Positions 21,350-37,372 of a DNA stretch of 37,372 bases are shown here, piece by piece. The DNA comes from a virus. Taxonomy: Duplodnaviria; Heunggongvirae; Uroviricota; Caudoviricetes. How positions within the stretch are numbered: position 1 is the stretch's first letter; each line of letters begins with the position of its first letter. The stretch lies in IMG/VR virus record IMGVR_UViG_3300031134_000639; one strand, 5' to 3'. The notes under the pieces were generated by a model. That model was not told the origin of the DNA, made no database searches, and was given only the letters and a program-made list of their open reading frames with translations. Made by a program: the position numbers and the translations under genes.

Positions 21350-21359
21350 CGCAATATTT

Positions 21360-21833: not shown

Positions 21834-21921
21834 ATTGTATTCTTTCTGTGGTTGATTTAGTTACTCTATTGTACCTTGGTTACCATTAAAAAGCAAAACG
21901 AAGTGTCTTGCTACTAGACAA

Positions 21922-22401: not shown

Positions 22402-22561
22402 GTTTTACTTCTTTCTTGTTGTTTTGTCCGAGCGTCCAAGTAACCTCGGTGGTTGTTTACAATTATATGCTAGCACCTCTTTTCAATGCTGTCAACATTC
22501 TACGCAAAATAGTTTAGTTTGCAAGCAAATACCGATACTTCTAATGACCTTAAGGAAAACT

Positions 22562-23257: not shown

Positions 23258-23330
23258 AGTTGCACAATAAGCATTTTTAGGGTGTGATGACCGATACTTC
23301 TTCTGTACAAAGAGCGAAAAGGCAGCGGGA

Positions 23331-23621
23331 ATGCAAGAGGATACAAAACCAACTAAAAAACGCATCATGAACCCTGATGACAGCAACTATGATGCATTGC
23401 TAGCAGCGAGTGTGTTTACCATACTGTTGCTAGGTACCGTCTGGCTTATGCATTTTATTGACGGCTGGATGAGAGTCCCAGTCACAGCTGCGGGTAGCAT
23501 CACCTCTTTGGTTGTCGCCATAATAGTATGGAAAGCATACCGCAAGCAGCATGTCTTGAATCAGAAAAAATGTGATGAAGCTGAGTCAGCTTCTAACAAC
23601 ACTGACAACGCTGCCAGGTGA
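23331..23621 (+). CDS. Small two-TM membrane protein
   Basis: Two hydrophobic segments; ACCGATA at 23290-23296. Confidence 0.7.
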   Translation: MQEDTKPTKKRIMNPDDSNYDALLAASVFTILLLGTVWLMHFIDGWMRVPVTAAGSITSLVVAIIVWKAYRKQHVLNQKKCDEAESASNNTDNAAR

Positions 23622-23780
23622 GATATCAATCTGCTTGATACCAAGCTTAATACTGTAACCCTTAGTGGTCTCGGTTAGATACCCGGACAACGCTCTACGC
23701 GAGGCCAAACGGATAGTTACAGTTGTGTTCACGTTCTTCTTGAGCAAATCTTCGTTGTTTGCGTTCTCTTTAATAGTCAT
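23586..23780 (-). CDS. Small hypothetical protein
   Basis: TTGACT-N17-TATAGT ends 9 nt upstream of the ATG; 36-bp convergent overlap with the preceding gene. Confidence 0.6.
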   Translation of the reverse strand: MTIKENANNEDLLKKNVNTTVTIRLASRRALSGYLTETTKGYSIKLGIKQIDISPGSVVSVVRS

Positions 23781-23953
23781 AATATACTCACTATAGCATG
23801 CCCTCAGGGAACAGTCAACTATGGGTTTACAATCCTGGTGATAAACCGATAAACCTTGAACAGGGTACCTGGTAAGTTATTAAACTGCTTGTGAACGGTC
23901 CCCAGCGGGTTAGTAATATCAGAGCACAGTTAACTAAACACCTAGGAGTACAA

Positions 23954-24844
23954 ATGACGAACAGTAATGCGGTAGGTACCGTTGAAACAGCCGTACCTAC
24001 AGAAAGTCAAGCAAAAGTCTGGCGCAAGAATAGCATCATTGTTATTCTCAGTGGCATAGGTATCTCTATTGTATTAGGCTTTAGTAGTCTATTGTATCTA
24101 AACTCCGACTGGAACTTCTCAGGTTATGCAGCACAAACAGCTCTACTAGTTTCATTCGCTGGGGTTTTAACTTATCTAGGCTTAGTGTCATATAATGTCC
24201 CGGCTCGCCGCTGGCTATCAATGTTGGCAATTGGCCTGTCCTGGATTGCTACAGCCTATAGCACCTTGTTTGTATGGGATATTCTCCAGTCAGACAACTT
24301 CCTTCACTTTGAAGGCAAGCTGCTAGCTGTAATATGGTTGTGGACAGCAATCACTTTAGCTAGCTCTCTCCTTATTGCCCTATCATCAGGTCTAACTAGA
24401 GCACCTTATATTTTCACATACGTAACTGTAGGTTTAGGTATCCTTCAGGGTATCTTTGGTTCAATTAACATCCTAGGTTCATTCAACCCTGCAACTCAAA
24501 TTGCATTTGATCGCGTGCTGATGGTGAACTACAACTTCATCGTCGCCAGCCTTGTCCTAGCTGTTGCCTTCTCGCTAATCCGTCGATTCTGGAATAATGA
24601 CATGACAGAGATGAAAAAATTTAATGCTCAGTCATCTGAACAGCCGTCAGTTGTCATCTCAACTAACTCACTACAGAACGTTGCTGCTCATTCTATGTTT
24701 GCTCAAGAGGATCCTGACGAGTTGATTACAAGACTTCTAAATGAAGACTTCATTCGCATCTCTGAAGAACGCAAGAAAGCGGAACCTGTTATCCCAGCAG
24801 CAGTAATGCCTATTGAGGAAATTTCTGGGAGTCAGAACTTATAA
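23954..24844 (+). CDS. Multi-pass membrane protein (about 6 TM), paralog A
   Basis: SD AGGAG before ATG 23954; about 6 hydrophobic segments; GKLLAVIWLW...LLIALSSGL. Confidence 0.85.
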   Translation: MTNSNAVGTVETAVPTESQAKVWRKNSIIVILSGIGISIVLGFSSLLYLNSDWNFSGYAAQTALLVSFAGVLTYLGLVSYNVPARRWLSMLAIGLSWIATAYSTLFVWDILQSDNFLHFEGKLLAVIWLWTAITLASSLLIALSSGLTRAPYIFTYVTVGLGILQGIFGSINILGSFNPATQIAFDRVLMVNYNFIVASLVLAVAFSLIRRFWNNDMTEMKKFNAQSSEQPSVVISTNSLQNVAAHSMFAQEDPDELITRLLNEDFIRISEERKKAEPVIPAAVMPIEEISGSQNL

Positions 24845-25749
24845 TGAGTACAGCAAGTCAGGCAGTAGCCAAAAAGACAGGAGTCTCTTTAGGTAGAAAA
24901 ATTGTTCTCATTGTCATGATAGCAACCTACAGTATCTCTGCAATCATTGGTATTGTAACTATCTTATCTTTCACTAATGGCTCCTCAAGTGTTTGGGCCG
25001 ACTCTGAAACTGAGTGGAGAACAATAGCGACAACAGCGTTAATTGGGACTAGCTCCCTCATCATACTTTGTGCCCTTGCAGTAGCTAACATCAAAACATG
25101 GCGTATCTTAGGATGGGTCACAGGGGCGACAGGGTTCGCTTCAGCGTTACTGACCCTCTTCTTTGTTTGGGGAGTAATAAGCTACGACAGAACAATAGAC
25201 AGCTATAGTTCCTACAGTTCAAGCTCAGACAACATACGTTGGTTGACTATGGATGCTTATGAGAACCTAATCAAGCTAGATGGAGTTCTTTGGGTTTGGT
25301 CATTTATCTTAGTGTTCACATGCCTTCTTATAGCTGCGACCCACGGGTTAAGCAAAATCGCTACAGCTTTCGCCTACATTTCAAGTGGTCTTGGTATGCT
25401 AAACGGAGTGATAATAACTTACCTTGTGTTCATAGGGACAGAGGACAGTTTCAATCTTGAATCACTGATAAAAACAGTTGCTGTAACATCCATTCTAGCA
25501 GTTCTTGGAACGCTAATAACTCTTACCCTAGCTTTGGTGCAGAGAACGACTGCTAAGAAGCAGAAGCCGGTACAATCTGCTACTTCTGTTGTCGGTGTCC
25601 AAGTCCCCGCTAGCGACAACACTCAGGCATCATACCAGTCGTCAACAATTACTGAGCACAGTCTGTCCCTGCTACAGGAGCGCTCAAAAGAACGCGGCTT
25701 AGACATAAATGACTACGTTGAGCGACTTCTCATAAAAGATGAGGACTAG
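24844..25749 (+). CDS. Multi-pass membrane protein (about 6 TM), paralog B
   Basis: TAATG coupling to paralog A; KLDGVLWVW...LLIAATHGL; soluble C-terminal tail. Confidence 0.85.
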   Translation: MSTASQAVAKKTGVSLGRKIVLIVMIATYSISAIIGIVTILSFTNGSSSVWADSETEWRTIATTALIGTSSLIILCALAVANIKTWRILGWVTGATGFASALLTLFFVWGVISYDRTIDSYSSYSSSSDNIRWLTMDAYENLIKLDGVLWVWSFILVFTCLLIAATHGLSKIATAFAYISSGLGMLNGVIITYLVFIGTEDSFNLESLIKTVAVTSILAVLGTLITLTLALVQRTTAKKQKPVQSATSVVGVQVPASDNTQASYQSSTITEHSLSLLQERSKERGLDINDYVERLLIKDED

Positions 25750-25774
25750 ATCTGAGAAAACAACTAGTAGCTTT

Positions 25775-26290
25775 TCAACGCCTAAACAAATTCAGTAGGC
25801 TACGCCTTTTGGTATCATATATTGCTATAAAAGATTGAATCTCCTTATACTGTTCACAAGTCCATCCTACTTTAGGGTCGCATGTTATAAGTAGAGTATT
25901 GGGGCGTGTAGCCGCCCAGTCGTAAGCATCTTGTTCAAATTCATCATCAAGCCAAATGACTGGTTCAGATATCTTCTTTAAGAATTGTTTTACCGCTGGC
26001 AGCTTCCATGTCAAGTTAGGCTTTGTGTTTGGCGGTACTATTCTGAAGGGAACATATTCGTATTTTTTGTTACCAAAGAAAAGGCTGATATCGTTAGATG
26101 ACTCCTCCCAAGCGGAACACCAAACCATACGAGCTTTGCTCTCTAAGTCTTTCATCCAAAGACCATGTGTTGTCGGGTTAAGTTGCCAGGAGGCCCATCC
26201 TGAAGTTAATGGCAAGAACCCTAAGTCAGGGGCGGAATCGCTTAGAGAAGGGTTAAGCACGCCATCAATATCCCATAAAATAACTGTCAT
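25775..26290 (-). CDS. HAD-superfamily phosphatase-like protein (Swiss Army Knife RNA-repair HAD type)
   Basis: ILWDIDGVLN (motif I), VWCSAWE (motif II), VIWLDDE (motif IV); leaderless TGA-TACTAT-N6-ATG. Confidence 0.8.
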   Translation of the reverse strand: MTVILWDIDGVLNPSLSDSAPDLGFLPLTSGWASWQLNPTTHGLWMKDLESKARMVWCSAWEESSNDISLFFGNKKYEYVPFRIVPPNTKPNLTWKLPAVKQFLKKISEPVIWLDDEFEQDAYDWAATRPNTLLITCDPKVGWTCEQYKEIQSFIAIYDTKRRSLLNLFRR

Positions 26291-26405
26291 ATATAGATAG
26301 TATCATCTTTCGGCGTAGTAAGGCGAAAGATGTAGGGCTGCCATCTTTATAGTTGATTTTTAGTGCTATTTAGTGTATACTTAAAAGATACTCTGAAAGG
26401 TTACA

Positions 26406-26888
26406 ATGAACCGTCTCATTATTTTTAGCGATAAATATAGCACCCGCATTTTTGATGCATCAACACCCGAGCTTCTTTCTAGAGCATGTTTAAAAGTTCT
26501 GCGTGAGCGCTTCAAAGAAGGTTATGTTTACCTTGAGCCGGAGCTTTCTTTTCTTAGCTTGTCCGCTGAGGATGCAGCTATCATGGCTCTTACAGAAGAG
26601 CAGGTTGACGGTCTACCGGAGCCTATTAAAGGAACGACTGCTGCTAAAAGAAAAAGCATTTCCGAACGGAACGCTAGGTTTGAGCGAACCTACGAAGAAG
26701 AAAAAGCATGGTATGACCGTGTAGTTAGTCTATGTGCCATGGACCCTGAGGAAGGTTACAAAGTGGAGGACAAGTCCACTCGTCGTGGACGTAAAGCTTC
26801 ATCAGAAGCTGTGGCTCTTCTGTCAGACAGAGCGGACTATCAGTATGAGGGCTTTGAGCTTGAACAAGTTGAGACATATAAAGAATGA
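26406..26888 (+). CDS. Hypothetical protein
   Basis: 160 aa ORF; TATACT and SD GAAAGG upstream. Confidence 0.8.
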   Translation: MNRLIIFSDKYSTRIFDASTPELLSRACLKVLRERFKEGYVYLEPELSFLSLSAEDAAIMALTEEQVDGLPEPIKGTTAAKRKSISERNARFERTYEEEKAWYDRVVSLCAMDPEEGYKVEDKSTRRGRKASSEAVALLSDRADYQYEGFELEQVETYKE

Positions 26889-26890
26889 CA

Positions 26891-26938
26891 AAACGTGAAT
26901 GGGCCGGTAAGTTATAACTTACCGGCCCATTCACGTTT
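26891..26938. terminator. Perfect 48-bp palindrome between convergent genes
   Basis: AAACGTGAATGGGCCGGTAAGTTA|TAACTTACCGGCCCATTCACGTTT with no spacer. Confidence 0.85.
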
Positions 26939-26946
26939 CAGCAGGT

Positions 26947-27669
26947 TTACTTCTTTTTGTTAGCAGCATCTACCTTACTTACAATCTCAGAAAAGCTAGC
27001 GAATAGAGACAAGACTTCTTTACTAGGAAGAATTTCAAAAGTAAAGTAGTCGTCAATGGCTCTTAACAGAGCATAGATATAATTGTGCCTGAAGTACTCA
27101 GGCTCAGAAAGAGTACCGTATTTTTGAGTGACGATAATATTCTCATGGAGAAACTTGTCGTAGTCTTCGACAGATGTAGGGGCTGAGTAGAGCAAAGTTT
27201 CCATATGCTTGTTGTCCCATCTCATACCAGTGGCTGCTGACGCTGTTTTAGCTACTTCGTCATGCGACCTCATTAACTTGACGAGAGTATCAAAGAAAGG
27301 AGTTCTGGCACGAATTTGGTAAGGAATCCTAGCATACTCTAAACCACTCATGTCTAGAACGCTACCAAAGAAACTGGTCTTTAGACCATCGCCCTTTCTG
27401 AAAACATGGGGGAAGAAGCCGTATGACTTCTCAACACGCCGCTTTTCTTTATTGCACAAGATGTAGAATGCGTTCATGTAGGAATTAACACTGTATGAGG
27501 TGGCGTCTACAGTGAAGTACTCGCCATATAGGCTCTTCAAATAGTTTGTAGGAATCTCAGTGTCAGTTACAGCTGAAACAAACTCAGCAAGGTTAGCTCC
27601 GAGACTCTTCTGGCTTAAAGTTGAACTCAGAAGAGTGTTAAGAAACTCCCTTTCAGTTACATCGCTCAT
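26947..27669 (-). CDS. Hypothetical protein
   Basis: 240 aa ORF; GAAAG upstream. Confidence 0.8.
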   Translation of the reverse strand: MSDVTEREFLNTLLSSTLSQKSLGANLAEFVSAVTDTEIPTNYLKSLYGEYFTVDATSYSVNSYMNAFYILCNKEKRRVEKSYGFFPHVFRKGDGLKTSFFGSVLDMSGLEYARIPYQIRARTPFFDTLVKLMRSHDEVAKTASAATGMRWDNKHMETLLYSAPTSVEDYDKFLHENIIVTQKYGTLSEPEYFRHNYIYALLRAIDDYFTFEILPSKEVLSLFASFSEIVSKVDAANKKK

Positions 27670-27736
27670 GTCTACCTTGCTTTCAAAGTCACGGATTTAT
27701 GTACGAGAGATAGTTTATAGGAAAGTCATCCTAAAG

Positions 27737-28060
27737 TCAAGGAAGCATCAGATCGTTTGATGTTCCCATGGCTAAGTCAACTTTCCTTCTCTTAGCGGAT
27801 GTTGTAAACCATTTCTTTTGCTCATCGCTTACACCGTAAACTAGGACTTTTGTTGCATTCCTGACCTTTAGAAGACGGACTACTTCGTCTACAACAACTT
27901 CGTTGGTGGTTGAAATTCTGTTCCCAAAGAGGAAAACAGTTTCGCCTGTAAGGTCAGCAGGAACATCACGGTTAAACCAATCCCCGACCTGCTGTTGGTT
28001 ACCGGTCATGCTAGGGAATCTAACTTCCACGCGCTCTACATTTCCTTCATACTTTGTCAT
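27737..28060 (-). CDS. Hypothetical protein, possibly STAS-like (leaderless)
   Basis: Start moved to MTKYEG using TGG-TACAAT-N6-ATG; TVFLFGNRISTTNEVVVDEVVRLL loosely matches a STAS/DUF4325 pattern. Confidence 0.7.
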   Translation of the reverse strand: MTKYEGNVERVEVRFPSMTGNQQQVGDWFNRDVPADLTGETVFLFGNRISTTNEVVVDEVVRLLKVRNATKVLVYGVSDEQKKWFTTSAKRRKVDLAMGTSNDLMLP

Positions 28061-28066
28061 AGTCCT

Positions 28067-28119
28067 ATTGTACCACAATACTGCTAGAGTTGACAGAGGC
28101 AACATTTGTGAGATATCAT
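28067..28119. promoter_or_regulatory. Back-to-back divergent promoters for two leaderless genes
   Basis: Minus strand: TGG-TACAAT (28067-28075). Plus strand: TTGACA(28090)-N18-TATCAT(28114-28119). Each -10 box ends 6 nt before an ATG. Confidence 0.75.
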
Positions 28120-28125
28120 AACTGT

Positions 28126-28599
28126 ATGACAAACACTAACCTTTATAATAACCCAGTTACTGCATTGAAGAGGGCTGTTGATGCAGCTGTTGAGAATGTG
28201 AAATCAGGTGGTGGCCCCTTTGGTGCTGTAATTGTTTTCCCAGATGGCAGAGTATTTGAAGGGGTGAACAGAGTTACAGCTAACAATGACCCAACTGCTC
28301 ACGCTGAAGTACAGGCTATCCGTAACGCTTGCGCAGCAATTGGTTCGTTCTCTTTGGAGGGAGCAGTTCTGTTTACCTCATGTGAACCTTGTCCTATGTG
28401 CCTTGGCGCTGCCCTGTGGTCTAGGGTAGACAAAATTGTTTACACTGCTGACCGTTTTGATGCTGCTGACGCAGGTTTTGATGATGCCGAGTTCTACGCT
28501 CTTCTTGAGCAAGGCAATATTGCGGAAAGAGTGGAAACAGGTTATCATCTGGCACCTTTTGATGAGTGGCGGTCAAAAGTCAACCGAACAGACTACTAA
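28126..28599 (+). CDS. guaD: Zn-dependent nucleoside/guanine deaminase (cytidine deaminase fold, Bacillus GuaD type)
   Basis: GGPFGAVIV, NDPTAHAEVQAIRNAC, TSCEPCPMCLGAALWSR, AGFDD, FDEW; start moved to ATG 28126. Confidence 0.88.
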   Translation: MTNTNLYNNPVTALKRAVDAAVENVKSGGGPFGAVIVFPDGRVFEGVNRVTANNDPTAHAEVQAIRNACAAIGSFSLEGAVLFTSCEPCPMCLGAALWSRVDKIVYTADRFDAADAGFDDAEFYALLEQGNIAERVETGYHLAPFDEWRSKVNRTDY

Positions 28600-28604
28600 T
28601 ATAG

Positions 28605-28642
28605 GTGTGGCCCTGAACGAAGTTTCTAGTTCAGGGCCACAC
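28605..28642. terminator. Inverted repeat between convergent genes
   Basis: 14-bp arms GTGTGGCCCTGAAC / GTTCAGGGCCACAC. Confidence 0.8.
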
Positions 28643-28673
28643 TTATATGTTTATGTGAGCATATGAGGTTAGG

Positions 28674-28961
28674 TCAACTTTGGCTTTTAAGGGCCTTCTC
28701 CCGCAGGATATTAAGAATAGAAAGGGCTGGAACTCCGCTGCCACTTGAGACATTCTGCATGAGGGCAAAAGAAAGAACCATAAGTCCTTCAACAAGGTCC
28801 TTGTCGGTAACACCAGCTTGCTTCATCTCATGGAAAATTTTATCTTCGTTTCCTTGCAGGGTCTGCTCTAGCAGATTAATGGAAAGAAGATAGTTGCTCA
28901 TAATCTCACGAGGGGTGTGGTCCGTGTGCTCAGGGACGTTCTCATCACTCATCAGATTCAC
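28674..28961 (-). CDS. Hypothetical protein
   Basis: 95 aa ORF overlapping the upstream gene; true start may be M4. Confidence 0.7.
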   Translation of the reverse strand: MNLMSDENVPEHTDHTPREIMSNYLLSINLLEQTLQGNEDKIFHEMKQAGVTDKDLVEGLMVLSFALMQNVSSGSGVPALSILNILREKALKSQS

Positions 28962-29214
28962 CTACAGCCTTGTTGAAAGCGATAAGTGCAACATCACAGG
29001 GGGACTTGAGAGTGGGCTTGTCTGCGGCTCTGAATGAGTTTACTCCACTAGCGCCATAGGCAGGCTTTTTGTCTAAACGGACAACCCGAATCATCTTGGT
29101 TGTGAAACCTACAACCCGGAACGGTACCATGTGCTTGTAGCCACCATCTGTTGACACAACAATGTCGTTCTCATTGAGAGGGTTACCTTGAAAATCTACC
29201 TGATTTGAACTCAT
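28945..29214 (-). CDS. Small hypothetical protein (SH3/KOW-like start)
   Basis: DFQGNPLNENDIVV...FRVVGFTTKMIRV; TATAAT and GAAAG upstream. Confidence 0.75.
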   Translation of the reverse strand: MSSNQVDFQGNPLNENDIVVSTDGGYKHMVPFRVVGFTTKMIRVVRLDKKPAYGASGVNSFRAADKPTLKSPCDVALIAFNKAVGESDE

Positions 29215-29309
29215 AGTTTCTACTTTCTTGTGGTCGTGAGATAGAGCGTGCTTCTATTATACAAGAAGACGCACCAAAAAGCAAGTTTATAAAAATCTTA
29301 TTTCAAGAG

Positions 29310-29338
29310 TTGACATGCTCTAATTCTTGGGTTAAAGT
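29310..29338 (+). promoter_or_regulatory. Sigma70/SigA-type promoter of rIIA
   Basis: TTGACA-N17-TAAAGT; SD AAGGAG at 29367-29372. Confidence 0.75.
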
Positions 29339-29381
29339 AGGGTTATCACTTATTCGCCCCTTATCTAAGGAGTACCAAGCT

Positions 29382-31583
29382 ATGAAGATTAATTCCACTG
29401 TTGCAACTGTTGAGACTTCCGCCGTGTTTGATACCACCACACGCATGAGTGTTGAGGATGAGTCTCTTGTCTTCATCCTCTCCAGCCTAACCAACCTGTA
29501 CTCCAACCGTGAGGCAGCTGTTCTTCGTGAGACTGCCGGTAACGCTTACGACTCCCACATTCTTGCTGGGCAGACTCGCCCGGTTGAGGTCACTCTCCCC
29601 ACTGCTCTGAATCCTTCTCTTGTCATCCGCGACTACGGTGTGGGCATGAGCCGTGATGAGCTTGTCAACATCTACTCCAAGTACGGAGCTTCAACGAAGC
29701 GTGACACCAACAAGCAGATTGGTGCGTTCGGCTTGGGAGCTAAGTCCCCGCTGGCTCTCGTTGACCAGTTCACTGTTATCTCTGTAAAGGATGGCATCAA
29801 GAACACGGTCCTCATCTCTAAGGGTACTGATGGTGTTGGTGGACTTAACTTCCTTCCTGAGAAGGCTACGGATGAGGCCAACGGTGTGACCGTTGACATT
29901 CCCATCCCGGATGCCGGTAAGATGGTCCGCGCATCTGAGGACATGTTCAGCGGATGGCCTCTCGGGTCTGTTCTCATCAACGGTGCCGCACCGAAGTTCT
30001 CCATTCACGACACCGCGCAGTCCAACAAGATTGCAGACGCCGGTTGGACTGCTGTTTCTCCCGAGCGATGGGGTAACACTGTCGTCAAGGCTTTCATTGG
30101 TCCGGTCCTCTACACGATTGAGCTTAACGAGGCTTTCAACGACTACTCCACCCGCCAGGAGGCGCTGGGAATCATCAACGGTTTCCGATCCACTGACGTG
30201 TACCTGAACCTGCCTATTGGCTCTGTTGAGCTTACGCCGTCACGTGAGAACCTTGTTTACAATGACGTTTCTCGTGCCGGTATCCTTGCTGCCCTTGACG
30301 AGTTTAACCGTCAGTACACCATCTCCATTGAGACTGAGCTTAACAAGATTGAGGACCGCACAAAGGCTTTCGGCTTCATTGCTAACCATGTCCGTAACGG
30401 TGCTTTCCCTAACGGTCTCTCGTGGAAGGGTGAGTCTCTTCCGGCATGGGAGGAGACCGGCGTTGACTCTTGGACTATTGGTGTTGTTGACCTGGACACC
30501 ACCAGTGCAAAGTACACTACTCCGGAAAAGTACAACCTGCTTTCCTACCAGTTGCACAACAGCCTCATGTCTCTTAAGTCTAGTGTCGTTGTGCAGAATG
30601 TGAAGGACCTTGAGGCAACCAAGCGTCACGTCCGTGATTATGTTCGTTCCACCGGCGAGCGTGTCATCAAGTTTGCTTTCACTGAGGGCGCAGTCACTAA
30701 CCCCTGGCTTGCTGTTGCAATCGGTTCAACGATTGAGGCTTCAGAGCTTGCAGACCAGGCTCGTGCTTACCGTGTTGAGGCTGACCGTAAGGCTCGGGAG
30801 CTTGCAAAGCTTGGTCTTACCTCTGGCCGTATCAAGGCGAACGAGAAGTTCTCAACCATTGAGGCGCTTAGCTCCTCCTGGTACAGCAAGAAGTTCACCG
30901 TCACTGAGCGTGCAGCCAACACATTCACTGAAGACACAAAGGTCATGTACCTGATGGTGGATGAGACTGTTGACGCGGTGAACCACAAGCTAAACCATGC
31001 AATTCGTGAGTCTGTCAGCGCTACCGGTGGTGGCTTCGGTCGTCGTGCTGATGGTTTGGAACTGGTTATCGCTGAGCTACTTAAGTCAGACAAGGATGTG
31101 GCTCTCATTAAGCTGCCTAAGGGGCGTAACCTTGGTAAGTTCAAGGAGATTTTCCCTAAGGCTGTGCCTGTCGCTGAGGTTGTCATCGAGTTCGTTAACA
31201 CCACTCGCCTGAACTCAACTGACCTTGAGAAGGAGTGGTTCAGTGTCAACATGCACAAGGAGCTTGATTACGCAATTCTTCTCAACGAAGAGGTCGTCAG
31301 CCGCGTAGGTGAGATCAGCAACGTTGACACACGTGCTTGGGTTCTTGCAGGTGCTAACAACGGTCACCGTAAAGCTTCAGCAGCGATTGGCGCTCTCGCT
31401 TCCAGCAGCCGCACCATTCCTTCAGAGGCACTAACTACTGCTGTCAAGGAATATGTTGACAGCGTTAAAGTCGCCCAGACAAAGGGTAACCGCAACTACG
31501 GCCTACTTAAGTCTGTTCAGAAGTTTGACGCCACTGACGTGATTGAGTACGTCAACATGAAAGACGCTCAGGCTAACAAGTAA
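29382..31583 (+). CDS. rIIA: rIIA-like protein (N-terminal GHKL/HATPase_c ATPase)
   Basis: LYSNREAAVLRETAGNAYDSH, IRDYGVGMS, YGASTKR...IGAFGLGAKS, GSVELTPSRENL; adjacent to rIIB; start moved to ATG 29382. Confidence 0.88.
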   Translation: MKINSTVATVETSAVFDTTTRMSVEDESLVFILSSLTNLYSNREAAVLRETAGNAYDSHILAGQTRPVEVTLPTALNPSLVIRDYGVGMSRDELVNIYSKYGASTKRDTNKQIGAFGLGAKSPLALVDQFTVISVKDGIKNTVLISKGTDGVGGLNFLPEKATDEANGVTVDIPIPDAGKMVRASEDMFSGWPLGSVLINGAAPKFSIHDTAQSNKIADAGWTAVSPERWGNTVVKAFIGPVLYTIELNEAFNDYSTRQEALGIINGFRSTDVYLNLPIGSVELTPSRENLVYNDVSRAGILAALDEFNRQYTISIETELNKIEDRTKAFGFIANHVRNGAFPNGLSWKGESLPAWEETGVDSWTIGVVDLDTTSAKYTTPEKYNLLSYQLHNSLMSLKSSVVVQNVKDLEATKRHVRDYVRSTGERVIKFAFTEGAVTNPWLAVAIGSTIEASELADQARAYRVEADRKARELAKLGLTSGRIKANEKFSTIEALSSSWYSKKFTVTERAANTFTEDTKVMYLMVDETVDAVNHKLNHAIRESVSATGGGFGRRADGLELVIAELLKSDKDVALIKLPKGRNLGKFKEIFPKAVPVAEVVIEFVNTTRLNSTDLEKEWFSVNMHKELDYAILLNEEVVSRVGEISNVDTRAWVLAGANNGHRKASAAIGALASSSRTIPSEALTTAVKEYVDSVKVAQTKGNRNYGLLKSVQKFDATDVIEYVNMKDAQANK

Positions 31584-31589
31584 GACCAA

Positions 31590-31637
31590 TCTATGTGGGG
31601 AAAGTGACTTGCACATGAGTTGCTTTCCCCACATAGA
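31590..31637. terminator. Inverted repeat between rIIA and rIIB
   Basis: 15-bp arms TCTATGTGGGGAAAG / CTTTCCCCACATAGA plus an inner wobble stem. Confidence 0.75.
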
Positions 31638-31648
31638 AATGATATAAT
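31620..31648 (+). promoter_or_regulatory. Promoter of rIIB
   Basis: TTGCTT-N17-TATAAT with TGn extension; the -35 box overlaps the hairpin's right arm. Confidence 0.65.
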
Positions 31649-31693
31649 CATTAAACACTAAACTTTCCACACCCCACAACGACTAGGAAAACA

Positions 31694-33103
31694 ATGTCTA
31701 CTTTCTATAACCTCTACACAGGACGCAATTCCTCTGGTATCACAATCATCTTTGAGAACACCAACCCCCGGTCAATCACCAATGACCACCCATTCTTTGA
31801 GCATGTCAAAAGCATCTTCCTCACTACAGCGCCTGAGGACATTGACGAGAGCCAGATTCTGGATCTTATCAACCCGGTTAGCAAGATTGGTGCCGCTCTA
31901 ACTAAGTTGTCCAGCCGCGTTACCTACAACGGTACCGACATTTTCTTTGACGGTGATGTTGTCAACAACTCACTGAGCGGACAGATCGTGAAGGCAATTC
32001 AGAACGGTGAAGAGGAATCAGCCTACCAGCCTCTCATTAACTTCCTTGAGAAGGTCAGCACCAACCCTAATCCGACAGCTGTTGAAGGTCTCTATGACTT
32101 CCTTTCCAGGTATGATTTCACAATTGCACCTGACGGTGACTTGCTCGCCCACAAGAAGGTTACCCCAGCAGGCACAAGCTTCCACAGCGGTTACGGTATC
32201 GTAGATGGAGTTGTTTACAAGAACTCACAGCTTCCCAACGCTGTCGGTAGCGTGGTTGAGTTCCCGCGTTCTCGTGTGGACGCCAACCAGCTTCACGGTT
32301 GTTCCACCGGACTGCACGCTGGTTCCTACGATTTCGCTGTGAACTTCGCTACGGGCATTCTTCTAGTTGTCAAGATCAACCCTCGTGATGTTGTCTCTGT
32401 CCCCTATGACTTCGCTTTCCAGAAGATTCGCACCTGCCGCTACGTGGTACTACACGAGGTTGAGACAGAGCAGCCTGCAACTGTCTGGGACCGTGTTCTA
32501 CAGAAGCACTCCCCTGAGAATGCTACCCCTGAAGAGGAGCCTGAGGAAGAGGAAATCGCAGAGGACAGTGCGATCATGCGAATTCTTCACCAGAGCAAGG
32601 ACGAGCAGGAAGAGGTCGGTTTCGGCTACACCAAGCTTGATGGCCGCTACGTGTCTGTTGACAGGTTCATGCCGGAGAGCTTCAGAGGAGACACTGTCAC
32701 TGGCTTGACTGACCGTGGTTACCGAACCTATGTTGTTGATGGCATTGAGGACATTGCATTCCTGTCCAAGGAGAGGAACAAAGAAGCTGGTGTAGATTCT
32801 CTCATCGACTCCATGAATGTGTTCTTCAAGGCTGCACATGATAAGGGAGTCTCCGATGAGCATGTAATCAAGATTTTGGATGAGATCACAGAACTGCTCA
32901 ACAAAAGCCACGTCAACAAGGAGCTAGCTGCTACTCAGCTTCCTGATGGCGAAGGCCTGAAAGCTATTCGTGATTCAGCTGGTAATGTTTCATTCTACGT
33001 CCGCACTCAGACTAAAGATGGGAAGACAACAGCAGTCGGAGCGCCCATCTTCAAGACTGGCGATGCTCTCGCTGATGAGGTCTTTGATGCTCTAGCTGAG
33101 TAG
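31694..33103 (+). CDS. rIIB: rIIB-like protein with a C-terminal extension
   Basis: DGDLLAHKKV, NAVGSVVEFPRSRVD, CSTGLHAGS, VKINPRDVVSVP, KIRTCRYVV. Confidence 0.88.
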   Translation: MSTFYNLYTGRNSSGITIIFENTNPRSITNDHPFFEHVKSIFLTTAPEDIDESQILDLINPVSKIGAALTKLSSRVTYNGTDIFFDGDVVNNSLSGQIVKAIQNGEEESAYQPLINFLEKVSTNPNPTAVEGLYDFLSRYDFTIAPDGDLLAHKKVTPAGTSFHSGYGIVDGVVYKNSQLPNAVGSVVEFPRSRVDANQLHGCSTGLHAGSYDFAVNFATGILLVVKINPRDVVSVPYDFAFQKIRTCRYVVLHEVETEQPATVWDRVLQKHSPENATPEEEPEEEEIAEDSAIMRILHQSKDEQEEVGFGYTKLDGRYVSVDRFMPESFRGDTVTGLTDRGYRTYVVDGIEDIAFLSKERNKEAGVDSLIDSMNVFFKAAHDKGVSDEHVIKILDEITELLNKSHVNKELAATQLPDGEGLKAIRDSAGNVSFYVRTQTKDGKTTAVGAPIFKTGDALADEVFDALAE

Positions 33104-33112
33104 CTTTCAGCG

Positions 33113-33161
33113 AAAAATGTCTATCCCCCGCATGTAACCTGTGCGGGGGATAGACATTTTT
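33113..33161. terminator. Inverted repeat, terminator after rIIB
   Basis: 20-bp arms AAAAATGTCTATCCCCCGCA, 9-nt loop. Confidence 0.85.
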
Positions 33162-33212
33162 GTCTTTAGGGGACAATAAATGACAAACTTTCATGTTTTT
33201 TCTCTGATGTTG

Positions 33213-33219
33213 ACCGATA
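33213..33219 (+). promoter_or_regulatory. ACCGATA motif upstream of the LAxTG surface protein
   Basis: 34 nt upstream of ATG 33254, just downstream of the rIIB terminator; no SigA-type promoter noticed. Confidence 0.55.
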
Positions 33220-33253
33220 CAACTAACGAACCTTCTACAGAGAGAATATTTTT

Positions 33254-35557
33254 ATGCCCATTTCAGAAAGTTTCCGCAGCAAGATGCGTAAATCTGCGAC
33301 AGTCACTTGTGTGAGCAGCGTTGCATTAGCAGGATTTATGTTCAGCGTACCAGTAGCTAACGCCGCTGAGTACCAAGCAGACACTACTTGGGGTAGCAAC
33401 GGACAGATTAACTTGTCCGAAAACTACTCATCAGTTTACGAGCCTGGTCTAGACAGTGCCAACAACCTATACATCGTTAACAACGCACAAAGCGGTGCTG
33501 GTGTAGACGCACCAGATGGTATCACCAAATACAATGCGCAAGGTCAGATTGATGTTTCATGGGGAGCAAACGGTTTCCTAGAGCTTGCAGACATTGTTGA
33601 CATTCAAGTATTAGGTGACGGTACCATCTACGCTCTAACCGACACAACTGTTAACGTCTACAGCGCAGATGGTGCGCTAGTTTCAAGCTTTGATATTAGT
33701 GACGTTTCAGGCTTAGGCGCAACCAACGTTGCTGTCACACCTGAAGGTGAAATTGTGGTAGCTGTAGCAACACAGATTGACTTCGCAGACACAAACGTTC
33801 TCTACAAGCTGTCAGCGACTGGTGACATTGTAAACGACTTCGGAACCAATGGTCTAGTTAACCTAGGCGCAGGAACACTCAACGATGTTGCAGTCACAGC
33901 TGATGGTAGTATTTACGTTGCTTCCGCTGGTGAGGCACTAGCTAAGTTCTCTGCTGCTGGTATCACTGATGATGGTTTCGTAGCAGACGTAACAAATGCT
34001 GGTACAGAGCTACTAGATCTACAGGCTTCACCCACAGACAACAGTGTTTATGTTAAAGGAAACGCTGCTCTAGTTAAGGTATCTCCTACCGGCGCTCAGG
34101 AGGCATGGAATGATGGTGACGGGTTTGCAGATGCAACCGGAACAGTCTTCGCTCTCAACGCAGCTGGTGACCTGTACGTAGCTAACCAGACTGTTGGCTC
34201 AACATACAGCAAACTAGTTACAGTAGCTGATGTAGCTGCACCAAGCCAGCCTACAAACGTTACTTTCACAAACATTGCTGAACGCAGTGCAACAGTCAAC
34301 TGGGAAGCACCAGTTAACACAGGTGGAAGCGATGTTACAGGCTATGACGTGCAGTACCGTGCTGTTGGCGCAACTGACTGGCTTCTACTTGACACACTTC
34401 CAGGTACCGCAAGGTCTGCTAACCTTACAGGTCTTACAGGCGAAACAGGATACGAAGTTTCTATCACAGCAACTAACGCTACAGGTACAGGTGCTGCTGC
34501 CGGAGCCGTCTTCAACACAGCAGCTGCACAAGCAGACGTTATTACAGCGCCTACTTCTCTAAGTGTTGTATCTGAGCAGTCAGGTCAGGCTACATTCGTG
34601 TGGGCTGCGCCAGCCGTACCTGAAGGTGTTACAATTACCGGCTATGAAGTTCAGTACCGTCTTGACGGTGGTGACACAGCAGTTACAAATAGAACTGTTG
34701 CTGCTAACACCACTGAATTCTCTGCAACAGGCCTTGAGAACTTGAGCAAGTACAACTTCAGTGTTCGCACGCTGACGAGTGCTGGTGCAAGCCAGTTCTC
34801 TCCTGGCGTAGTTATTACCCCATTTGAGTTCGCTCCTGTAGCAAACTACACTGACACTCGTGAAGAAGCAGGAGTGCAGCAGGTTCCTGGAAGCACAATC
34901 AAGCTTACACCTTCAAACGTTAATGATCTGCTCCCTGTTGGCGCAACAGTCAACCTGAAACTTGTTAACGCTGCTGGTGTTGAGACCTTAATTGGCTCAC
35001 AGGTTGTGGGTGCTGATGGTGGTTACGACCTAACCGGTACAATCCCAGCAGATTATGCAACAGGTAACGCTACTTTGCTTGCTGAGGTAGCATTTGAAAA
35101 CAGTGTACGTCAGGCTGTTGAAGAAAGCCTAGTTGTTGTAGCTGCCGAGTCTGCTCCAGACCCTAATGCTCCCGTTGTAGGAGGTAGCGGCGATAATGGT
35201 GGAGTTGCACCTGCTGACAATGGCACCACACCTATTGCATCTGGTGGAGACACTGGTGTGATAGGCGAAAACGGCTCAGCTACCCCCACATACGCCAATT
35301 GTGATGCAGCTATTGCCGATGGTAATGGGAATCTACAGACAACTGACCGTAACCTTGATGGCGATGGCGATGGGATTGGCTGTGAAGTAGCTGGTGGACC
35401 ACAGAACGCATCTGCTCTAGCTTACACCGGTACAGATGGAACCAGTTCACTCATCGGTGCTGGACTCCTTCTTCTTGGTGCTGGTGCTGGTTTAGGCGCT
35501 ATTAGCTTGAAGCGTCGTAAGAAGTATGAAAGCTTCCTACCAAGTAACATTAGCTAA
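33254..35557 (+). CDS. Sortase-anchored cell-surface protein: signal peptide, beta-propeller-like repeats, 2x FN3, Ig-like domain, Excalibur Ca-binding domain, LAYTG anchor
   Basis: Signal peptide ending VANA|A; D-x-[ST]-W/F-G-x-N-G repeats; two FN3 domains (W...P...YDVQYR...YEVSITATN; YEVQYR...YNFSVRT); YANC...DRNLDGDGDGIGCE (35291-35386); LAYTG (35417-35431) followed by a TM segment and KRRKK. Confidence 0.9.
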   Translation: MPISESFRSKMRKSATVTCVSSVALAGFMFSVPVANAAEYQADTTWGSNGQINLSENYSSVYEPGLDSANNLYIVNNAQSGAGVDAPDGITKYNAQGQIDVSWGANGFLELADIVDIQVLGDGTIYALTDTTVNVYSADGALVSSFDISDVSGLGATNVAVTPEGEIVVAVATQIDFADTNVLYKLSATGDIVNDFGTNGLVNLGAGTLNDVAVTADGSIYVASAGEALAKFSAAGITDDGFVADVTNAGTELLDLQASPTDNSVYVKGNAALVKVSPTGAQEAWNDGDGFADATGTVFALNAAGDLYVANQTVGSTYSKLVTVADVAAPSQPTNVTFTNIAERSATVNWEAPVNTGGSDVTGYDVQYRAVGATDWLLLDTLPGTARSANLTGLTGETGYEVSITATNATGTGAAAGAVFNTAAAQADVITAPTSLSVVSEQSGQATFVWAAPAVPEGVTITGYEVQYRLDGGDTAVTNRTVAANTTEFSATGLENLSKYNFSVRTLTSAGASQFSPGVVITPFEFAPVANYTDTREEAGVQQVPGSTIKLTPSNVNDLLPVGATVNLKLVNAAGVETLIGSQVVGADGGYDLTGTIPADYATGNATLLAEVAFENSVRQAVEESLVVVAAESAPDPNAPVVGGSGDNGGVAPADNGTTPIASGGDTGVIGENGSATPTYANCDAAIADGNGNLQTTDRNLDGDGDGIGCEVAGGPQNASALAYTGTDGTSSLIGAGLLLLGAGAGLGAISLKRRKKYESFLPSNIS

Positions 35558-35564
35558 AAAGTAG

Positions 35565-35608
35565 TAAAAGTTGAGGCCCACAAGTTTTCTTGTGGGCCTC
35601 AACTTTTA
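35565..35608. terminator. Bidirectional terminator-like inverted repeat
   Basis: 20-bp arms TAAAAGTTGAGGCCCACAAG, 4-nt loop, between convergent genes. Confidence 0.85.
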
Positions 35609-36277
35609 TGTTAGCGCTACTAACCATTCAATTGGTACATCTTTGATTCCTAAAGCTTCCTTCTCCGTCATACCTCTACCTAGGGCATAGTACGCCTTAG
35701 ATGGGGCAAGACCATTTTCAAGCAAACTAATTGCAGTCTTGAACACTGAATGCTCGTGGCTACTGATACCACTTTCCAGAAGAGGCACCTTGTAGTCTAA
35801 TCTTTTCCGCGCAATATATGGAACAAGAGGAGATAGCTTGACTGCCAGTTGGGGGTCAGCGTCATTTTCAATAAGAAAACTAGCGAGCTTACCCTTGTAT
35901 TCTTCTAGGGCAGTAAAGAACGTTTCTTTATCCACGTTGAAGTAGGTTTTGTTGCTATTTTGTTTAACCTTTGCAGTGGGAGAGACCAGACATGCGCGTA
36001 GGAAATTATGGAAGGGATAGTCTGTGTCATAAAGTTTGTACCCCTGGACAACCTGCTTAAAAGCTATCCCTAGGGTGTGGTTTGCAAACTGGCGAGTTGT
36101 CATGTTGCCGTCAGGCTGAAGGAGCTTTGATACGAGAGTGAGATCGTTGGGGTTGTCGTTTTTCAGTACTTCATACTCTTCTAACCACCCATTGTCAGCA
36201 AAGTACTTGCGTGTCTGATAGATGGACTGCCTGTCAGACTCAGTAAGCTCAGGGGCTTCAAATTTGCGGTTCATCAT
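35606..36277 (-). CDS. Hypothetical protein (leaderless)
   Basis: Start moved to MMNRKF using TGA-TATAAT-N7-ATG; C-terminus KDVPIEWLVAL. Confidence 0.8.
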   Translation of the reverse strand: MMNRKFEAPELTESDRQSIYQTRKYFADNGWLEEYEVLKNDNPNDLTLVSKLLQPDGNMTTRQFANHTLGIAFKQVVQGYKLYDTDYPFHNFLRACLVSPTAKVKQNSNKTYFNVDKETFFTALEEYKGKLASFLIENDADPQLAVKLSPLVPYIARKRLDYKVPLLESGISSHEHSVFKTAISLLENGLAPSKAYYALGRGMTEKEALGIKDVPIEWLVALT

Positions 36278-36335
36278 GTTAGTTATTATATCAGAGGTTA
36301 CACCCGCTGGCAACAGCCCGAGCAGAAAGTTTTCC

Positions 36336-36623
36336 ATGAGCGAGACTAAAAGGCAACCTACAGTTTACAAACATCCAGATATCCGAGAGTTTAATGTTTC
36401 AGCTATTGTTGCGCTAGCGTTAGCGATTATCTACTTATTATCCTCTGGGTTCTTCCTGCTCCTCATTGGAGTTATAATCTTTGGTCACCGTGCTTTGCTT
36501 CAGATGAGAATTGACCCGTACACTAGAGGCAAGGTTATGGCTATCATTGCTTTAACTGTTGCATATGTCTCACTAGGATTAACAGTTATCAGTATACTAG
36601 CTAACTACTTCATACTTTCTTAA
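36336..36623 (+). CDS. Small membrane protein, DUF4190-like
   Basis: NVSAIVALALA...GVIIFGHRALLQMR...RGKVMAIIAL matches the DUF4190 pattern (A..SL...GH.AL.QI....G.G.A..G); GAAAG upstream. Confidence 0.7.
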   Translation: MSETKRQPTVYKHPDIREFNVSAIVALALAIIYLLSSGFFLLLIGVIIFGHRALLQMRIDPYTRGKVMAIIALTVAYVSLGLTVISILANYFILS

Positions 36624-36682
36624 GCATAAATCAAGTGTGGCCCAAGCTAGAAACTAGCTTGGGCCACACTTGATTTATGCTT
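36622..36682. terminator. Longest inverted repeat in the window, between convergent genes
   Basis: Perfect 29-bp arms AAGCATAAATCAAGTGTGGCCCAAGCTAG, loop AAA. Confidence 0.88.
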
Positions 36683-37372
36683 TTATTTGATTATAGAGTC
36701 GTAGTAAATTTCTACCTTGAGGCTCGGGTCGTTAAAACCATCAACAAGACGGGTATTTTTAGTTCCCTGTCCTGCTCTGTCTGTCTTACGTACAGGTGAA
36801 CCTTCCTGAATCATGTTATCAAAGTTGTCCTCAAATTCTTCCATAGCTATTCCTAAGTCGTCTCTACGGGTTTTAGTAGTATCAGAGTAGACTGTGAAGG
36901 AATATGGTGAATCCATTTCAGGGTCGCCTAAGGATTCTCCTGCAACCGTAGCGCGGTAGTTATAGCCGATGATTTGAGCCATCTTTCTAGCTTCAGATTC
37001 GGAGATAGGTCGGTTAGCCTGGAATCGCATGGAGTAAGGCCAGTCGGCGTAGACTCCATCACGTCTACGGTGATAGACTGTACCATCTACCGTGACCTCG
37101 TTTAGCACTTCACCATTTTGTACTCGTGCATCGTCGCTGAGTACTGTAGGCGCAGATGACTGCTCAGGAGCCACATAAATGTCATCAGGTATCTGCCACT
37201 CAGCAAGCTTACTATCTCGTTCACGAATTAGTTCATCCAATTTACGCTCAAATTCATCGCGGATGGCTCTGTTCTGGTCTGCTACATTTGTGGCATGGTC
37301 TAGGCTGCAATTTTTGGTATAACAGTCACTTCCGTCCGTGTGCATGTATGGGGCTTTGCGTTTGCCTGCCAT
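36683..37372 (-). CDS. Hypothetical protein with N-terminal H-C-C-H module (start at the window edge)
   Basis: MHTDGSDCYTKNCSLDH; upstream sequence is not visible, so the start is unconfirmed. Confidence 0.75.
   Translation of the reverse strand: MAGKRKAPYMHTDGSDCYTKNCSLDHATNVADQNRAIRDEFERKLDELIRERDSKLAEWQIPDDIYVAPEQSSAPTVLSDDARVQNGEVLNEVTVDGTVYHRRRDGVYADWPYSMRFQANRPISESEARKMAQIIGYNYRATVAGESLGDPEMDSPYSFTVYSDTTKTRRDDLGIAMEEFEDNFDNMIQEGSPVRKTDRAGQGTKNTRLVDGFNDPSLKVEIYYDSIIK

Follow-up and report, generated by a model that had tools for sequence, protein, structure and literature searches.

A putative wall-anchored surface protein with an actinobacteria-type sorting signal in a very large phage of plant surfaces

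Phage genes that remodel the surface of the host determine its exposure to other phages, the adhesion of infected cells, and the spread of progeny. The stretch of DNA analysed here (37,372 nucleotides from a virus, hereafter the window) encodes a protein of 767 amino acids, P0001 (33254..35557, + strand), with a predicted export signal at one end and a predicted wall-sorting signal at the other. This raises the question of where a viral protein with this pair of signals ends up. The reading favoured here, with a probability of roughly 60%, is that P0001 is made during infection as a surface protein, by a phage of very large size (contigs to 663 kb) whose host is an actinobacterium, and that it is probably displayed on the wall of the infected cell. 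Because the tail of P0001 matches the signal by which actinobacteria fasten proteins to their wall, infection by the virus probably changes how the cell surface is decorated.

Gene and domain organization of P0001

An earlier reading of the DNA letters, made without database searches (the sequence-only reading), had given exactly this open reading frame, and had proposed that it forms its own transcription unit. The gene lies directly after rIIA-rIIB, and is flanked by two strong hairpin terminators. The first, of intrinsic type, closes the rIIA-rIIB unit (33114..33160, + strand; 20-bp stem with 9 GC pairs, T-rich tail), while the second is bidirectional (35565..35608; 20-bp stem) and is common to the P0001 gene and a convergent gene (35606-36337, − strand). 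This convergent reading frame of 243 amino acids, a DUF4190 protein and others occupy the 3′ side. A promoter-like motif, ACCGATA, is found at 33213..33219 (+ strand), 35 nt before the start codon. The window contains seven copies, with 1.9 expected, all of them on the + strand, intergenic, and upstream of + strand genes; a count of seven was reached in 0 of 100 shuffled sequences. The shorter core CCGATA is intergenic and points at the gene downstream in nine of its ten copies. The two hairpins and the excess of the motif agree with the proposal of a separate unit.

At the N-terminus, a Sec-type signal peptide is predicted from sequence and hydropathy for residues 1–37 (33254..33364, + strand). 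It has four Lys/Arg in residues 1–13, a hydrophobic core at residues 17–35 (Kyte-Doolittle 19-mer mean of 1.85), and A-N-A at residues 35–37, after which cleavage is predicted. The two most hydrophobic 19-residue segments of the protein are exactly this one and a C-terminal one (1.88). These features agree with the Sec signal of the sequence-only reading.

Residues 38–330 (33365..34243, + strand), previously described as propeller-like repeats, are confidently modelled as a six-bladed NHL/delta-60-type β-propeller. The AlphaFold2 model, obtained with an alignment of 46 rows, has a pLDDT of 86.8 and a pTM of 0.87, and Foldseek matches it to six-bladed NHL-type propellers (E about 1e-10, TM 0.65), with TRIM2, TRIM71, Pizza6 and PknD at TM 0.58–0.67 (E about 1e-10 to 1e-8). 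A structure search of the Atlas returned DUF5122 clusters at TM 0.70–0.78, and the alignment consensus is a delta-60-type repeat of about 48 residues. The predicted fold is therefore like that of the NHL/delta-60 (DUF5122) propellers, including the sensor domain of M. tuberculosis PknD (1RWL) and the NHL domains of TRIM proteins, but the sequence misses the cut-offs of the corresponding models (TIGR02608, 15.8 against 76.5; NHL, PF01436, 10.8 against 20). An exhaustive search gave distant, partial, repeat-level relatives with at most 34% identity, so that no donor lineage can be named for this domain. A fold search of BFVD indicated that propellers of this type are common in viruses, and taught nothing more.

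The propeller is followed by two fibronectin type III (FN3) domains, at residues 331–414 and 432–522 (34244..34819, + strand), both already named in the sequence-only reading and recovered by Pfam in two stretches (PF00041, 103.5 bits against a cut-off of 25, 6.9e-30). The Ig-like domain proposed for the next region (34820..35173, + strand; residues about 523 to 640–645) stands as a structure-level lead, with no Pfam family assigned. The Atlas search places it at TM of about 0.7 to bacterial Ig-like sandwiches, and a single-sequence AlphaFold2 model of residues 523–720 has an all-β core with pLDDT 70–86; this model is of low confidence over its Excalibur part, and usable for the β-sandwich core only. 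A flexible linker rich in Gly, Asn and Asp (residues 641–679; 35174..35290, + strand; pLDDT below 50), which is also found in a paralogous cassette, leads to the C-terminal tail.

The C-terminal tail and its predicted sorting signal

The tail begins with an Excalibur calcium-binding module (residues 680–711; 35291..35386, + strand). It contains C683 and C710, and the mature protein has no other Cys. The core NCDAA...DxDGDGxxCE is invariant in five sequences, with D-G-D-G-D-G-I-G-C-E as the P0001 loop. The window allele scores 19.7 bits with PF05901, below the gathering cut-off of 22, and two sister alleles score above it (P0002, 32.0; P0204, 26.6). The Excalibur domain of the sequence-only reading is thus supported by the Cys pair and the calcium-binding loop, but not by the profile score of this particular allele.

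The cell-wall sorting signal (35417..35524, + strand) was found as previously described, with LAYTG at residues 722–726, the hydrophobic maximum of the protein at residues 734–752, and the basic tail KRRKK at residues 753–757. The NCBIfam model LPXTG_anchor (TIGR01167) scores 17.7, above its cut-off of 15.9. A regular expression for the sorting-signal pattern, run on all six-frame reading frames of the window and four loci, retrieved P0001 and the relative that shares its cassette, and no others. For the class E sortases of Actinobacteria, LAxTG is the documented signal (PMC5148588), as the sequence-only reading had it. It is also the type found in the three Micrococcales genomes tested: the top sorting-signal match is LASTG in Microbacterium, LANTG in Arthrobacter and LAATG in Brachybacterium, and each of these genomes has a sortase. 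In the Microbacterium genome, the only PF04203 match found gives 152.8 bits to class_E_sortase on a 131-residue piece, so that one of the three has a sortase of class E type.

The tail also behaves as a portable anchoring cassette, which these phages attach to different passengers. It is found on two unrelated ones, namely the propeller-FN3-Ig protein of P0001 and, on other huge contigs, a protein with DUF8394 and TIG repeats. Five cassette sequences are 44–54% identical in the module; all of them share LAYTG and the tail's RR without any change, and the flanking residues are divergent. A genome scan with the cassette returned mostly bare Excalibur modules, in many Actinomycetota, Bacillus, Saccharibacteria and Chloroflexota, and did not discriminate the host.

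These observations bear on the alternative that P0001 is exported without any later cleavage by a sortase, and stays in the membrane as a type I protein tethered by its C-terminal helix, with LAYTG a mere juxtamembrane motif. No sortase gene (PF04203) was found among the called genes of the window or of the 10 kb beyond its 3′ end, and the Pfam model Gram_pos_anchor (PF00746) gives 15.0 on the full protein, below its cut-off of 20. It reaches 20.1 on the C-terminal piece of a sister allele with the identical signal. The basic tail is followed by 10 residues, longer than usual, and at least one Excalibur protein of a bacterial genome (L018) ends in a plain hydrophobic segment without LPXTG-like motif. 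Against a simple tether, LAYTG is kept in the diverged cassettes on both passengers while its flanks vary, TIGR01167 is above cut-off, and the motif is of the class used by sortase substrates of the inferred host lineage. I therefore regard the membrane tether as unlikely, if worth keeping in mind, and attachment to the wall as the better account of the tail.

The gene itself is under purifying selection. Compared to the related locus L003, it shows 13 synonymous and 0 non-synonymous changes, and compared to L001, 11 synonymous and 0 non-synonymous changes outside a patch in the Excalibur region. Four more metagenomes, from plants and straw, contain the gene in intact form, and 17 of the 17 differences listed for them outside the patch are at third codon positions. 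The patch itself (codons 674–709, 36 codons; 35273..35380, + strand) is allele-swapped: relative to the strain on the 338-kb contig it contains 34 nucleotide differences, and all 10 amino-acid differences of the gene. The same patch is variable in the runs X4 and X7. A diversity-generating retroelement was considered as its origin and rejected; since the changes are multi-nucleotide codon replacements, many of them synonymous, they indicate a recombination tract and not adenine-directed mutagenesis.

Identity of the element and its host lineage

The same stretch of DNA is found on metagenome contigs of 338–663 kb from plant surfaces, among them JGI 3300031088 Ga0308157_10000032 (663 kb) and 3300055081 Ga0540631_0000001 (603 kb). 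Directly upstream of the P0001 gene are rIIA (2.4e-81) and rIIB (6.4e-50), and the gene order dCMP deaminase-rIIA-rIIB is that of Streptomyces phage Bmoc. In a tblastn search, the top matches of rIIA and rIIB were all phages of Microbacterium, Arthrobacter, Streptomyces and Rhodococcus, even though the 2,900 matching records are mostly from enterobacterial phages. The best relatives of the rIIA, rIIB and DnaE of the window are all from actinophages, and the class of the sorting signal (LAxTG) fits a host of this lineage. The G+C content speaks against such a host: it is 45% for the window, typical leaf actinobacteria are of high G+C, and even the cultured relative Zooman has 58%. Saccharibacteria, which have a similar G+C and type IV pili, were tried as hosts and rejected; cells of their small size could hardly support a genome of more than 600 kb, and the relatives of the rII genes are in actinophages. 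A further point against an actinobacterial host is that the four prepilin genes of the phage with an N_methyl motif lack an equivalent in the three Micrococcales genomes; the motif does occur, however, in 219 of 301 sampled Actinomycetota genomes, a sample that includes the unpublished genomes G004, G051, G091 and G123.

Other searches for relatives were negative. Megablast of the 3′ half of the window (20000–37372) and tblastn of P0001 gave no match in 50,697 phage records, and scans of IMG/VR with P0001, rIIA and the cassette alignment gave no relatives. A search for full-length homologues returned the cluster of P0001 itself, and otherwise matches driven by the FN3 domains.

It could be argued that the element is not a phage but a giant plasmid-like or chromosome-like replicon, or that the P0001 gene is a passenger that contributes nothing to infection, in which case the protein would belong to the ordinary surface biology of the replicon or of the cell. 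Genes for capsid, portal and terminase were all absent from the contig stretches read, so that the term phage rests on the rII-type and nucleotide-metabolism genes. At 603–663 kb, the largest contigs are as long as small bacterial genomes can be, and the window also includes pilin-like genes and a ParA-like gene. However, the rII genes are present and stand with dCMP deaminase in the order of cultured lytic actinophages, analogous LAxTG proteins are encoded by cultured Microbacterium phages, and the 37-kb window has no tRNA genes. On this evidence a non-phage replicon, or a passenger gene, is quite improbable.

Phage particles often bear FN3 and Ig-like domains, and P0001 might be a virion protein, for example a tail fibre or a capsid decoration. 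It matches the PHROG families ‘central tail fiber J’ (3.6e-10) and ‘major tail protein’ (1.1e-4), and β-propellers are common in viral proteins. These PHROG matches are nevertheless confined to the FN3 region (residues 290–520), and the gene is a lone transcription unit adjoining the rII genes, not part of a structural module. The predicted Sec and sorting signals would moreover send the protein out of the cytoplasm, where particles of tailed phages assemble. A place on the virion is thus very improbable, and the two signals, in their phage context, point to the wall of the host cell, as the sequence-only reading had suggested.

Finally, a piece of chromosome that entered as a recent contaminant, or a chimeric assembly, the condition under which that reading would have fallen, can be dismissed, and nothing was found in its favour. 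Three samples each gave a JGI contig with the gene and its neighbours (100%, 99.0% and 98.7% nucleotide identity over 14 kb), public runs of other studies add more single contigs with them, and the synteny is identical in seven assemblies. Since the composition of the gene matches that of the phage (GC3 of 0.36, within the window range of 0.33–0.58 and far from that of a high-G+C host) the locus is neither contaminant nor misassembly.

Proposed role and comparison with known systems

The preferred reading of P0001, as a protein displayed on the wall of the infected cell, suggests the following path. The protein would be exported by the Sec pathway through its predicted N-terminal signal peptide, and held in the membrane by its C-terminal hydrophobic segment and KRRKK tail. 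The housekeeping class E sortase of the host would then cut LAYT|G, and join the Thr to peptidoglycan. Going by the domain order, the Excalibur module and the Gly-rich linker would lie at the wall, followed by a stalk made of the Ig-like and both FN3 domains, and the six-bladed propeller would be a distal head that binds a ligand. The likeliest purpose would be to change what the surface of the infected cell binds. The protein may cover receptors in the wall, so that superinfecting phages are kept off or progeny are not lost on debris, or it may be an adhesin on the leaf surface; I do not rank one of these above the other.

A broader proposal, which I put forward tentatively and consider somewhat less likely to be right than wrong, is that large phages of Actinomycetota, from cultured Microbacterium phages of ∼190 kb to plant megaphages of more than 600 kb, routinely hijack the housekeeping class E sortase of their host to graft proteins onto its wall. 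The megaphages would do so with a portable, recombining Excalibur-LAYTG cassette bearing different heads, and this, together with prepilins under a common CCGATA-type promoter, would make up a surface-remodelling programme for superinfection exclusion or leaf adhesion. The P0001 locus shows such a modular anchoring cassette under selection. Perhaps the most useful by-product of the analysis is the finding of unannotated proteins with a signal peptide and LAxTG in cultured, genetically tractable Microbacterium phages, which makes the wall-display hypothesis testable at the bench now.

These proteins are Zooman gp245 and Pumpernickel gp243, both annotated as ‘membrane protein’, from phages among the closest rIIA relatives of the window. 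They possess a signal peptide, LAATG or LATTG, a hydrophobic segment and a basic tail (RRKR or RRRK), and score above the TIGR01167 cut-off. They differ from P0001 in their passengers, which show no sequence similarity to it, in having no Excalibur module, and in the size of their genomes (about 190 kb, against more than 600 kb). The predicted signals of P0001 are also like those of known class E sortase substrates, the chaplins ChpA-C of Streptomyces coelicolor, which are handled by SrtE1/SrtE2 (Kattke et al., 2016; PMC5148588): an N-terminal signal peptide, L-A-x-T-G, a hydrophobic segment and a basic tail. In contrast to the chaplins, P0001 is encoded by a phage-type genome and not by the cell, and has an unrelated passenger (propeller, two FN3, Ig-like and Excalibur).

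Discussion of phage proteins displayed by sortases has until now concerned staphylococcal prophages and, most recently, huge gut phages of Bacillota. In the former, SasX/SesI, carried by a phiSPbeta-like prophage of staphylococci, is likewise a phage-borne surface protein that uses the host sortase; unlike P0001, it is a moron, carried in Bacillota by a temperate prophage, its motif is a canonical LPXTG, and its passenger is small and unrelated. In the latter, SrtB-substrate modules have been described, whose products are proposed to be displayed on the host wall (Yuan & Chen, bioRxiv 2026, doi 10.64898/2026.10.24.761521). These resemble the P0001 locus in belonging to very large phages, and in combining a signal peptide, a variable stalk-like passenger and a sorting signal. 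However, those phages come from the gut and infect Bacillota, and encode their own SrtB directly downstream of the substrate, with a PXTG motif and SHIRT/FctA passengers; P0001 comes from plant surfaces and an actinobacterial lineage, has no sortase match among the called genes within 10 kb, and has A-Y-T-G in its LAYTG motif and an Excalibur module in its anchoring cassette. The idea of phage proteins anchored in the wall was therefore put forward before, with SasX and the SrtB modules of huge phages, but for neither this group of hosts nor this type of signal, and the P0001 locus extends it to actinobacteria-type LAxTG signals, to a phage that would rely on the enzyme of its host, and to the communities of plant surfaces.

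Domain architecture and transcription of P0001

The protein under study, P0001, is encoded at 33254..35557 (+) and spans 767 amino acids, as the sequence-only reading had placed it. The Sec signal suggested there corresponds to an N-terminus with four basic residues, a hydrophobic core and A-N-A, and Pfam locates the two suggested FN3 domains at residues 331–414 and about 432–522 (6.9e-30). The LAYTG-TM-KRRKK sorting signal also holds, with a score of 17.7 to NCBIfam LPXTG_anchor (curated cut-off 15.9); Pfam Gram_pos_anchor gives a weak match (15.0, cut-off 20). In this C-terminus, seven residues separate LAYTG from the hydrophobic segment, which is followed by KRRKK and a final ten residues. 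The most hydrophobic 19-residue segments are the N-terminal core (residues 17–35, 1.85) and the C-terminal segment (734–752, 1.88), and none exceeds 1.2 elsewhere.

Pfam does match the suggested Excalibur domain at residues 680–711, but weakly (19.7 bits, cut-off 22); the only two cysteines of the mature protein both lie within this module, and residues 641–679 form a Gly-rich linker, modeled with low confidence by AlphaFold2. The suggested Ig-like domain is probable, but not proven, as a sandwich at residues 523–645, where a structure search of the Atlas returned mostly actinobacterial proteins (TM about 0.7), and a single-sequence AlphaFold2 model shows an all-beta core (pLDDT 70–86). For the propeller-like repeats I modeled residues 38–330 with AlphaFold2, using a 46-row alignment from an exhaustive search (pLDDT 86.8, pTM 0.87). 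Foldseek neighbours of this model are the TRIM2/TRIM71 NHL domains, the designed Pizza6 and the PknD sensor domain (E 1e-10 to 1e-8, TM about 0.6–0.67), identifying a six-bladed NHL-type propeller, and the ESM Atlas leads to DUF5122/delta-60 propellers. This assignment is at fold level only, since the Pfam and NCBIfam NHL/delta-60-type repeat models do not reach their cut-offs on P0001.

The gene had been proposed to form its own transcription unit, and is indeed flanked by hairpins, with ACCGATA upstream. The first hairpin, at 33114–33160 after the rIIB stop codon, has a 20-bp stem and a T-rich tail, and the second, of the same strength, separates the gene from the convergent downstream gene (35565–35608). 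Seven ACCGATA sites, each on the + strand, are present in the window, where 1.9 would be expected; this count was reached in 0 of 100 shuffles. Nine of the ten CCGATA cores lie in non-coding DNA (13% of the window) and point to a downstream start, at a distance of 15–116 nt for seven of them. These intergenic motifs, of the form CCGATA or ACCGATA(C)TTCT, are at 7829, 15278, 15598, 22531, 23290, 23845 and 33213 (+) and at 11731 and 17321 (-). They precede the P0001 gene, two of four prepilin-like genes, a ParA/MinD-like ATPase gene and a DUF2071 gene, and the motif is probably a phage-specific promoter element. A perfect 61-nt palindrome, which came up as a reverse self-match in BLAST, lies at 36622–36682 between convergent ORFs (36222–36623, +; 36683–37372, -), and is probably another bidirectional terminator.

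The LAxTG signal and the proposed role of P0001

LAxTG is the signal of class E sortases in Actinobacteria (PMC5148588). In three Micrococcales genomes reached via other loci, the top LPXTG_anchor match carries LASTG (Microbacterium), LANTG (Arthrobacter) or LAATG (Brachybacterium), and in each case a hydrophobic segment and then an RRR-type tail come after it. Each genome encodes at least one sortase, and the sole Sortase-family (PF04203) match found in Microbacterium scores 152.8 bits to NCBIfam class_E_sortase, on a 131-aa piece and far above other sortase classes.

A TIGR01167 scan of five cultured relatives gave two matches over the cut-off. Zooman gp245 (861 aa; L047:2400-4985), which has relatives in Microbacterium and Micrococcus phages (10 records), has a clear signal peptide, and its C-terminus consists of LAATG, a hydrophobic segment and RRKR. 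Pumpernickel gp243 (L046:2593-4671) has LATTG, a hydrophobic segment and RRRK at its C-terminus, and its start seems to have been annotated too far downstream, since an in-frame ATG upstream of it provides a typical signal peptide. Neither carries an annotation beyond 'membrane protein', and a literature search found no paper connecting Microbacterium phages with sortase. No sequence similarity to P0001 was found in either, and they are analogues rather than homologues.

A search with the C-terminal part of P0001 identified three further proteins of 955–986 aa, on plant-associated contigs whose length reaches 791 kb, one sharing its sample with a 663-kb JGI contig. P0204 (L004:10001-12961), P0207 (L048:3001-5931) and P0208 form a second cassette family, all with a DUF8394 domain and TIG repeats; P0204, the one fully read, has a signal peptide and four recognisable TIG repeats. 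All three end, like P0001, in a Gly-rich linker, Excalibur, LAYTG, a hydrophobic segment and an RR tail. A five-sequence alignment of this cassette shows 44–54% identity to the query, with LAYTG, the Excalibur core and RR invariant and the residues flanking LAYTG different, and Excalibur in the relatives clears the Pfam cut-off (32.0 and 26.6 bits). That the pentapeptide is retained on two unrelated passengers is the strongest indication from sequence that LAYTG is functional.

P0001 would be exported by Sec and retained by its C-terminal segment, whereupon a housekeeping class E sortase of the host may cut LAYT/G and transfer the product to peptidoglycan. From the domain order, the Excalibur module and linker would be wall-proximal, the Ig-like and two FN3 domains a stalk, and the propeller a distal binding head. 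The favoured role is surface remodelling of the infected cell, which could mask receptors against superinfection or progeny loss on debris, or promote leaf adhesion. No sortase gene was found in the window or in 10 kb past its 3' end. Set against the invariant LAYTG, I consider a membrane anchor without sortase processing unlikely, if the most credible of the alternatives.

Genome context, host and authenticity of the locus

The two genes upstream of P0001 are rIIA (PHROG 2.4e-81) and rIIB (6.4e-50). The window also encodes a ribonucleotide reductase fragment and dCMP deaminase, with RNase H, RecX and YqaJ exonuclease farther downstream. Despite an enterobacterial majority among the about 2,900 phage records matching rIIA or rIIB, the best matches are all actinophages, namely Microbacterium phages Zooman, Pumpernickel and Big4, Arthrobacter phages Mimi and Racecar, Streptomyces phages and Rhodococcus phage Trina. 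The order dCMP deaminase-rIIA-rIIB is the same in Streptomyces phage Bmoc. An 83-kb cassette-bearing contig encodes a DnaE that likewise leads to actinophages, together with a Ter-type PRTase/StiP cluster and NAPRTase. In cultured relatives rIIB precedes other genes, so the P0001 gene is an addition. A point of tension with this lineage is the G+C content, 45% in the window and 58% in Zooman. Within the window, GC3 peaks in the rIIA and rIIB genes (29382–33103; 0.58 and 0.56, most others about 0.35–0.47), which hints at a history or expression class unlike that of their neighbours.

The prepilin N-terminal methylation motif (PF07963) is matched by four window ORFs at 1e-7 to 5e-9, at 7898–8668 (+), 16700–17200 (-), 19049–20245 (-) and 20398–21156 (-), so that this megaphage encodes type IV pilin-like proteins. 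Among them, preceded by a CCGATA motif, is the gene for a ParA/MinD/CpaE-like P-loop ATPase (10645–11667, -; AAA_31, 1.2e-8). The prepilin motif, a further point of tension, has no counterpart in the three Micrococcales genomes or five cultured relatives searched, but occurs in 219 of the 301 genomes of a sample from across Actinomycetota (including the unpublished G004, G051, G091 and G123). An actinobacterium is therefore the probable host, though it need not be one of the tested Micrococcales.

That the genome is a phage is well supported, not proven; in the about 45 kb read, no structural phage genes were seen. A non-phage replicon, or a P0001 gene that is an idle passenger, is doubtful given the rII genes, and a virion protein is very improbable.

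P0001 itself is also encoded on two JGI contigs, of 663 kb and 603 kb, and a third contig, of 338 kb, encodes a protein 99% identical to it. The window is identical to the 663-kb contig across their 14,119-nt overlap. Codon changes in the gene are 13 synonymous and 0 non-synonymous against the 603-kb contig and, outside codons 674–709, 11 and 0 against the 338-kb contig. The gene is also present without frameshift in four other public metagenomes from plants and straw, one study each, with 17 of 17 listed differences outside this patch at third codon positions; the sequence occurs in public runs of phyllosphere, plant and straw metagenomes. GC3 is 0.36, within the window range of 0.33–0.58. 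Together with the identical neighbours of the gene on the three contigs, from three samples, these observations exclude contamination, misassembly and pseudogene status, so that the chromosomal contaminant or misassembly envisaged in the sequence-only reading fails, and an artefact is scarcely conceivable.

Codons 674–709 hold all ten amino-acid differences from the 338-kb strain as well as 34 nucleotide differences, and this patch is also variable in two of the four further metagenome runs. Since it consists of multi-base codon replacements, many of them synonymous, the pattern indicates a recombination tract, probably from exchange with a paralogous module, and directed mutagenesis was rejected as its source.

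Comparison with known systems

A phage-borne sortase substrate is already known in SasX, on a phiSPbeta-like prophage, and an October 2026 preprint (doi 10.64898/2026.10.24.761521) reports that huge Bacillota phages of the gut encode a sortase B next to a substrate that combines a signal peptide with a PXTG motif. The P0001 locus differs from both SasX and the huge-phage SrtB module in host lineage, sortase class, habitat and passenger, and lacks two defining features of the latter, the adjacent phage sortase and the PXTG motif. The cultured Microbacterium phages allow a direct test, which is of practical value. To the known systems the P0001 locus adds a recombining Excalibur-LAYTG cassette.
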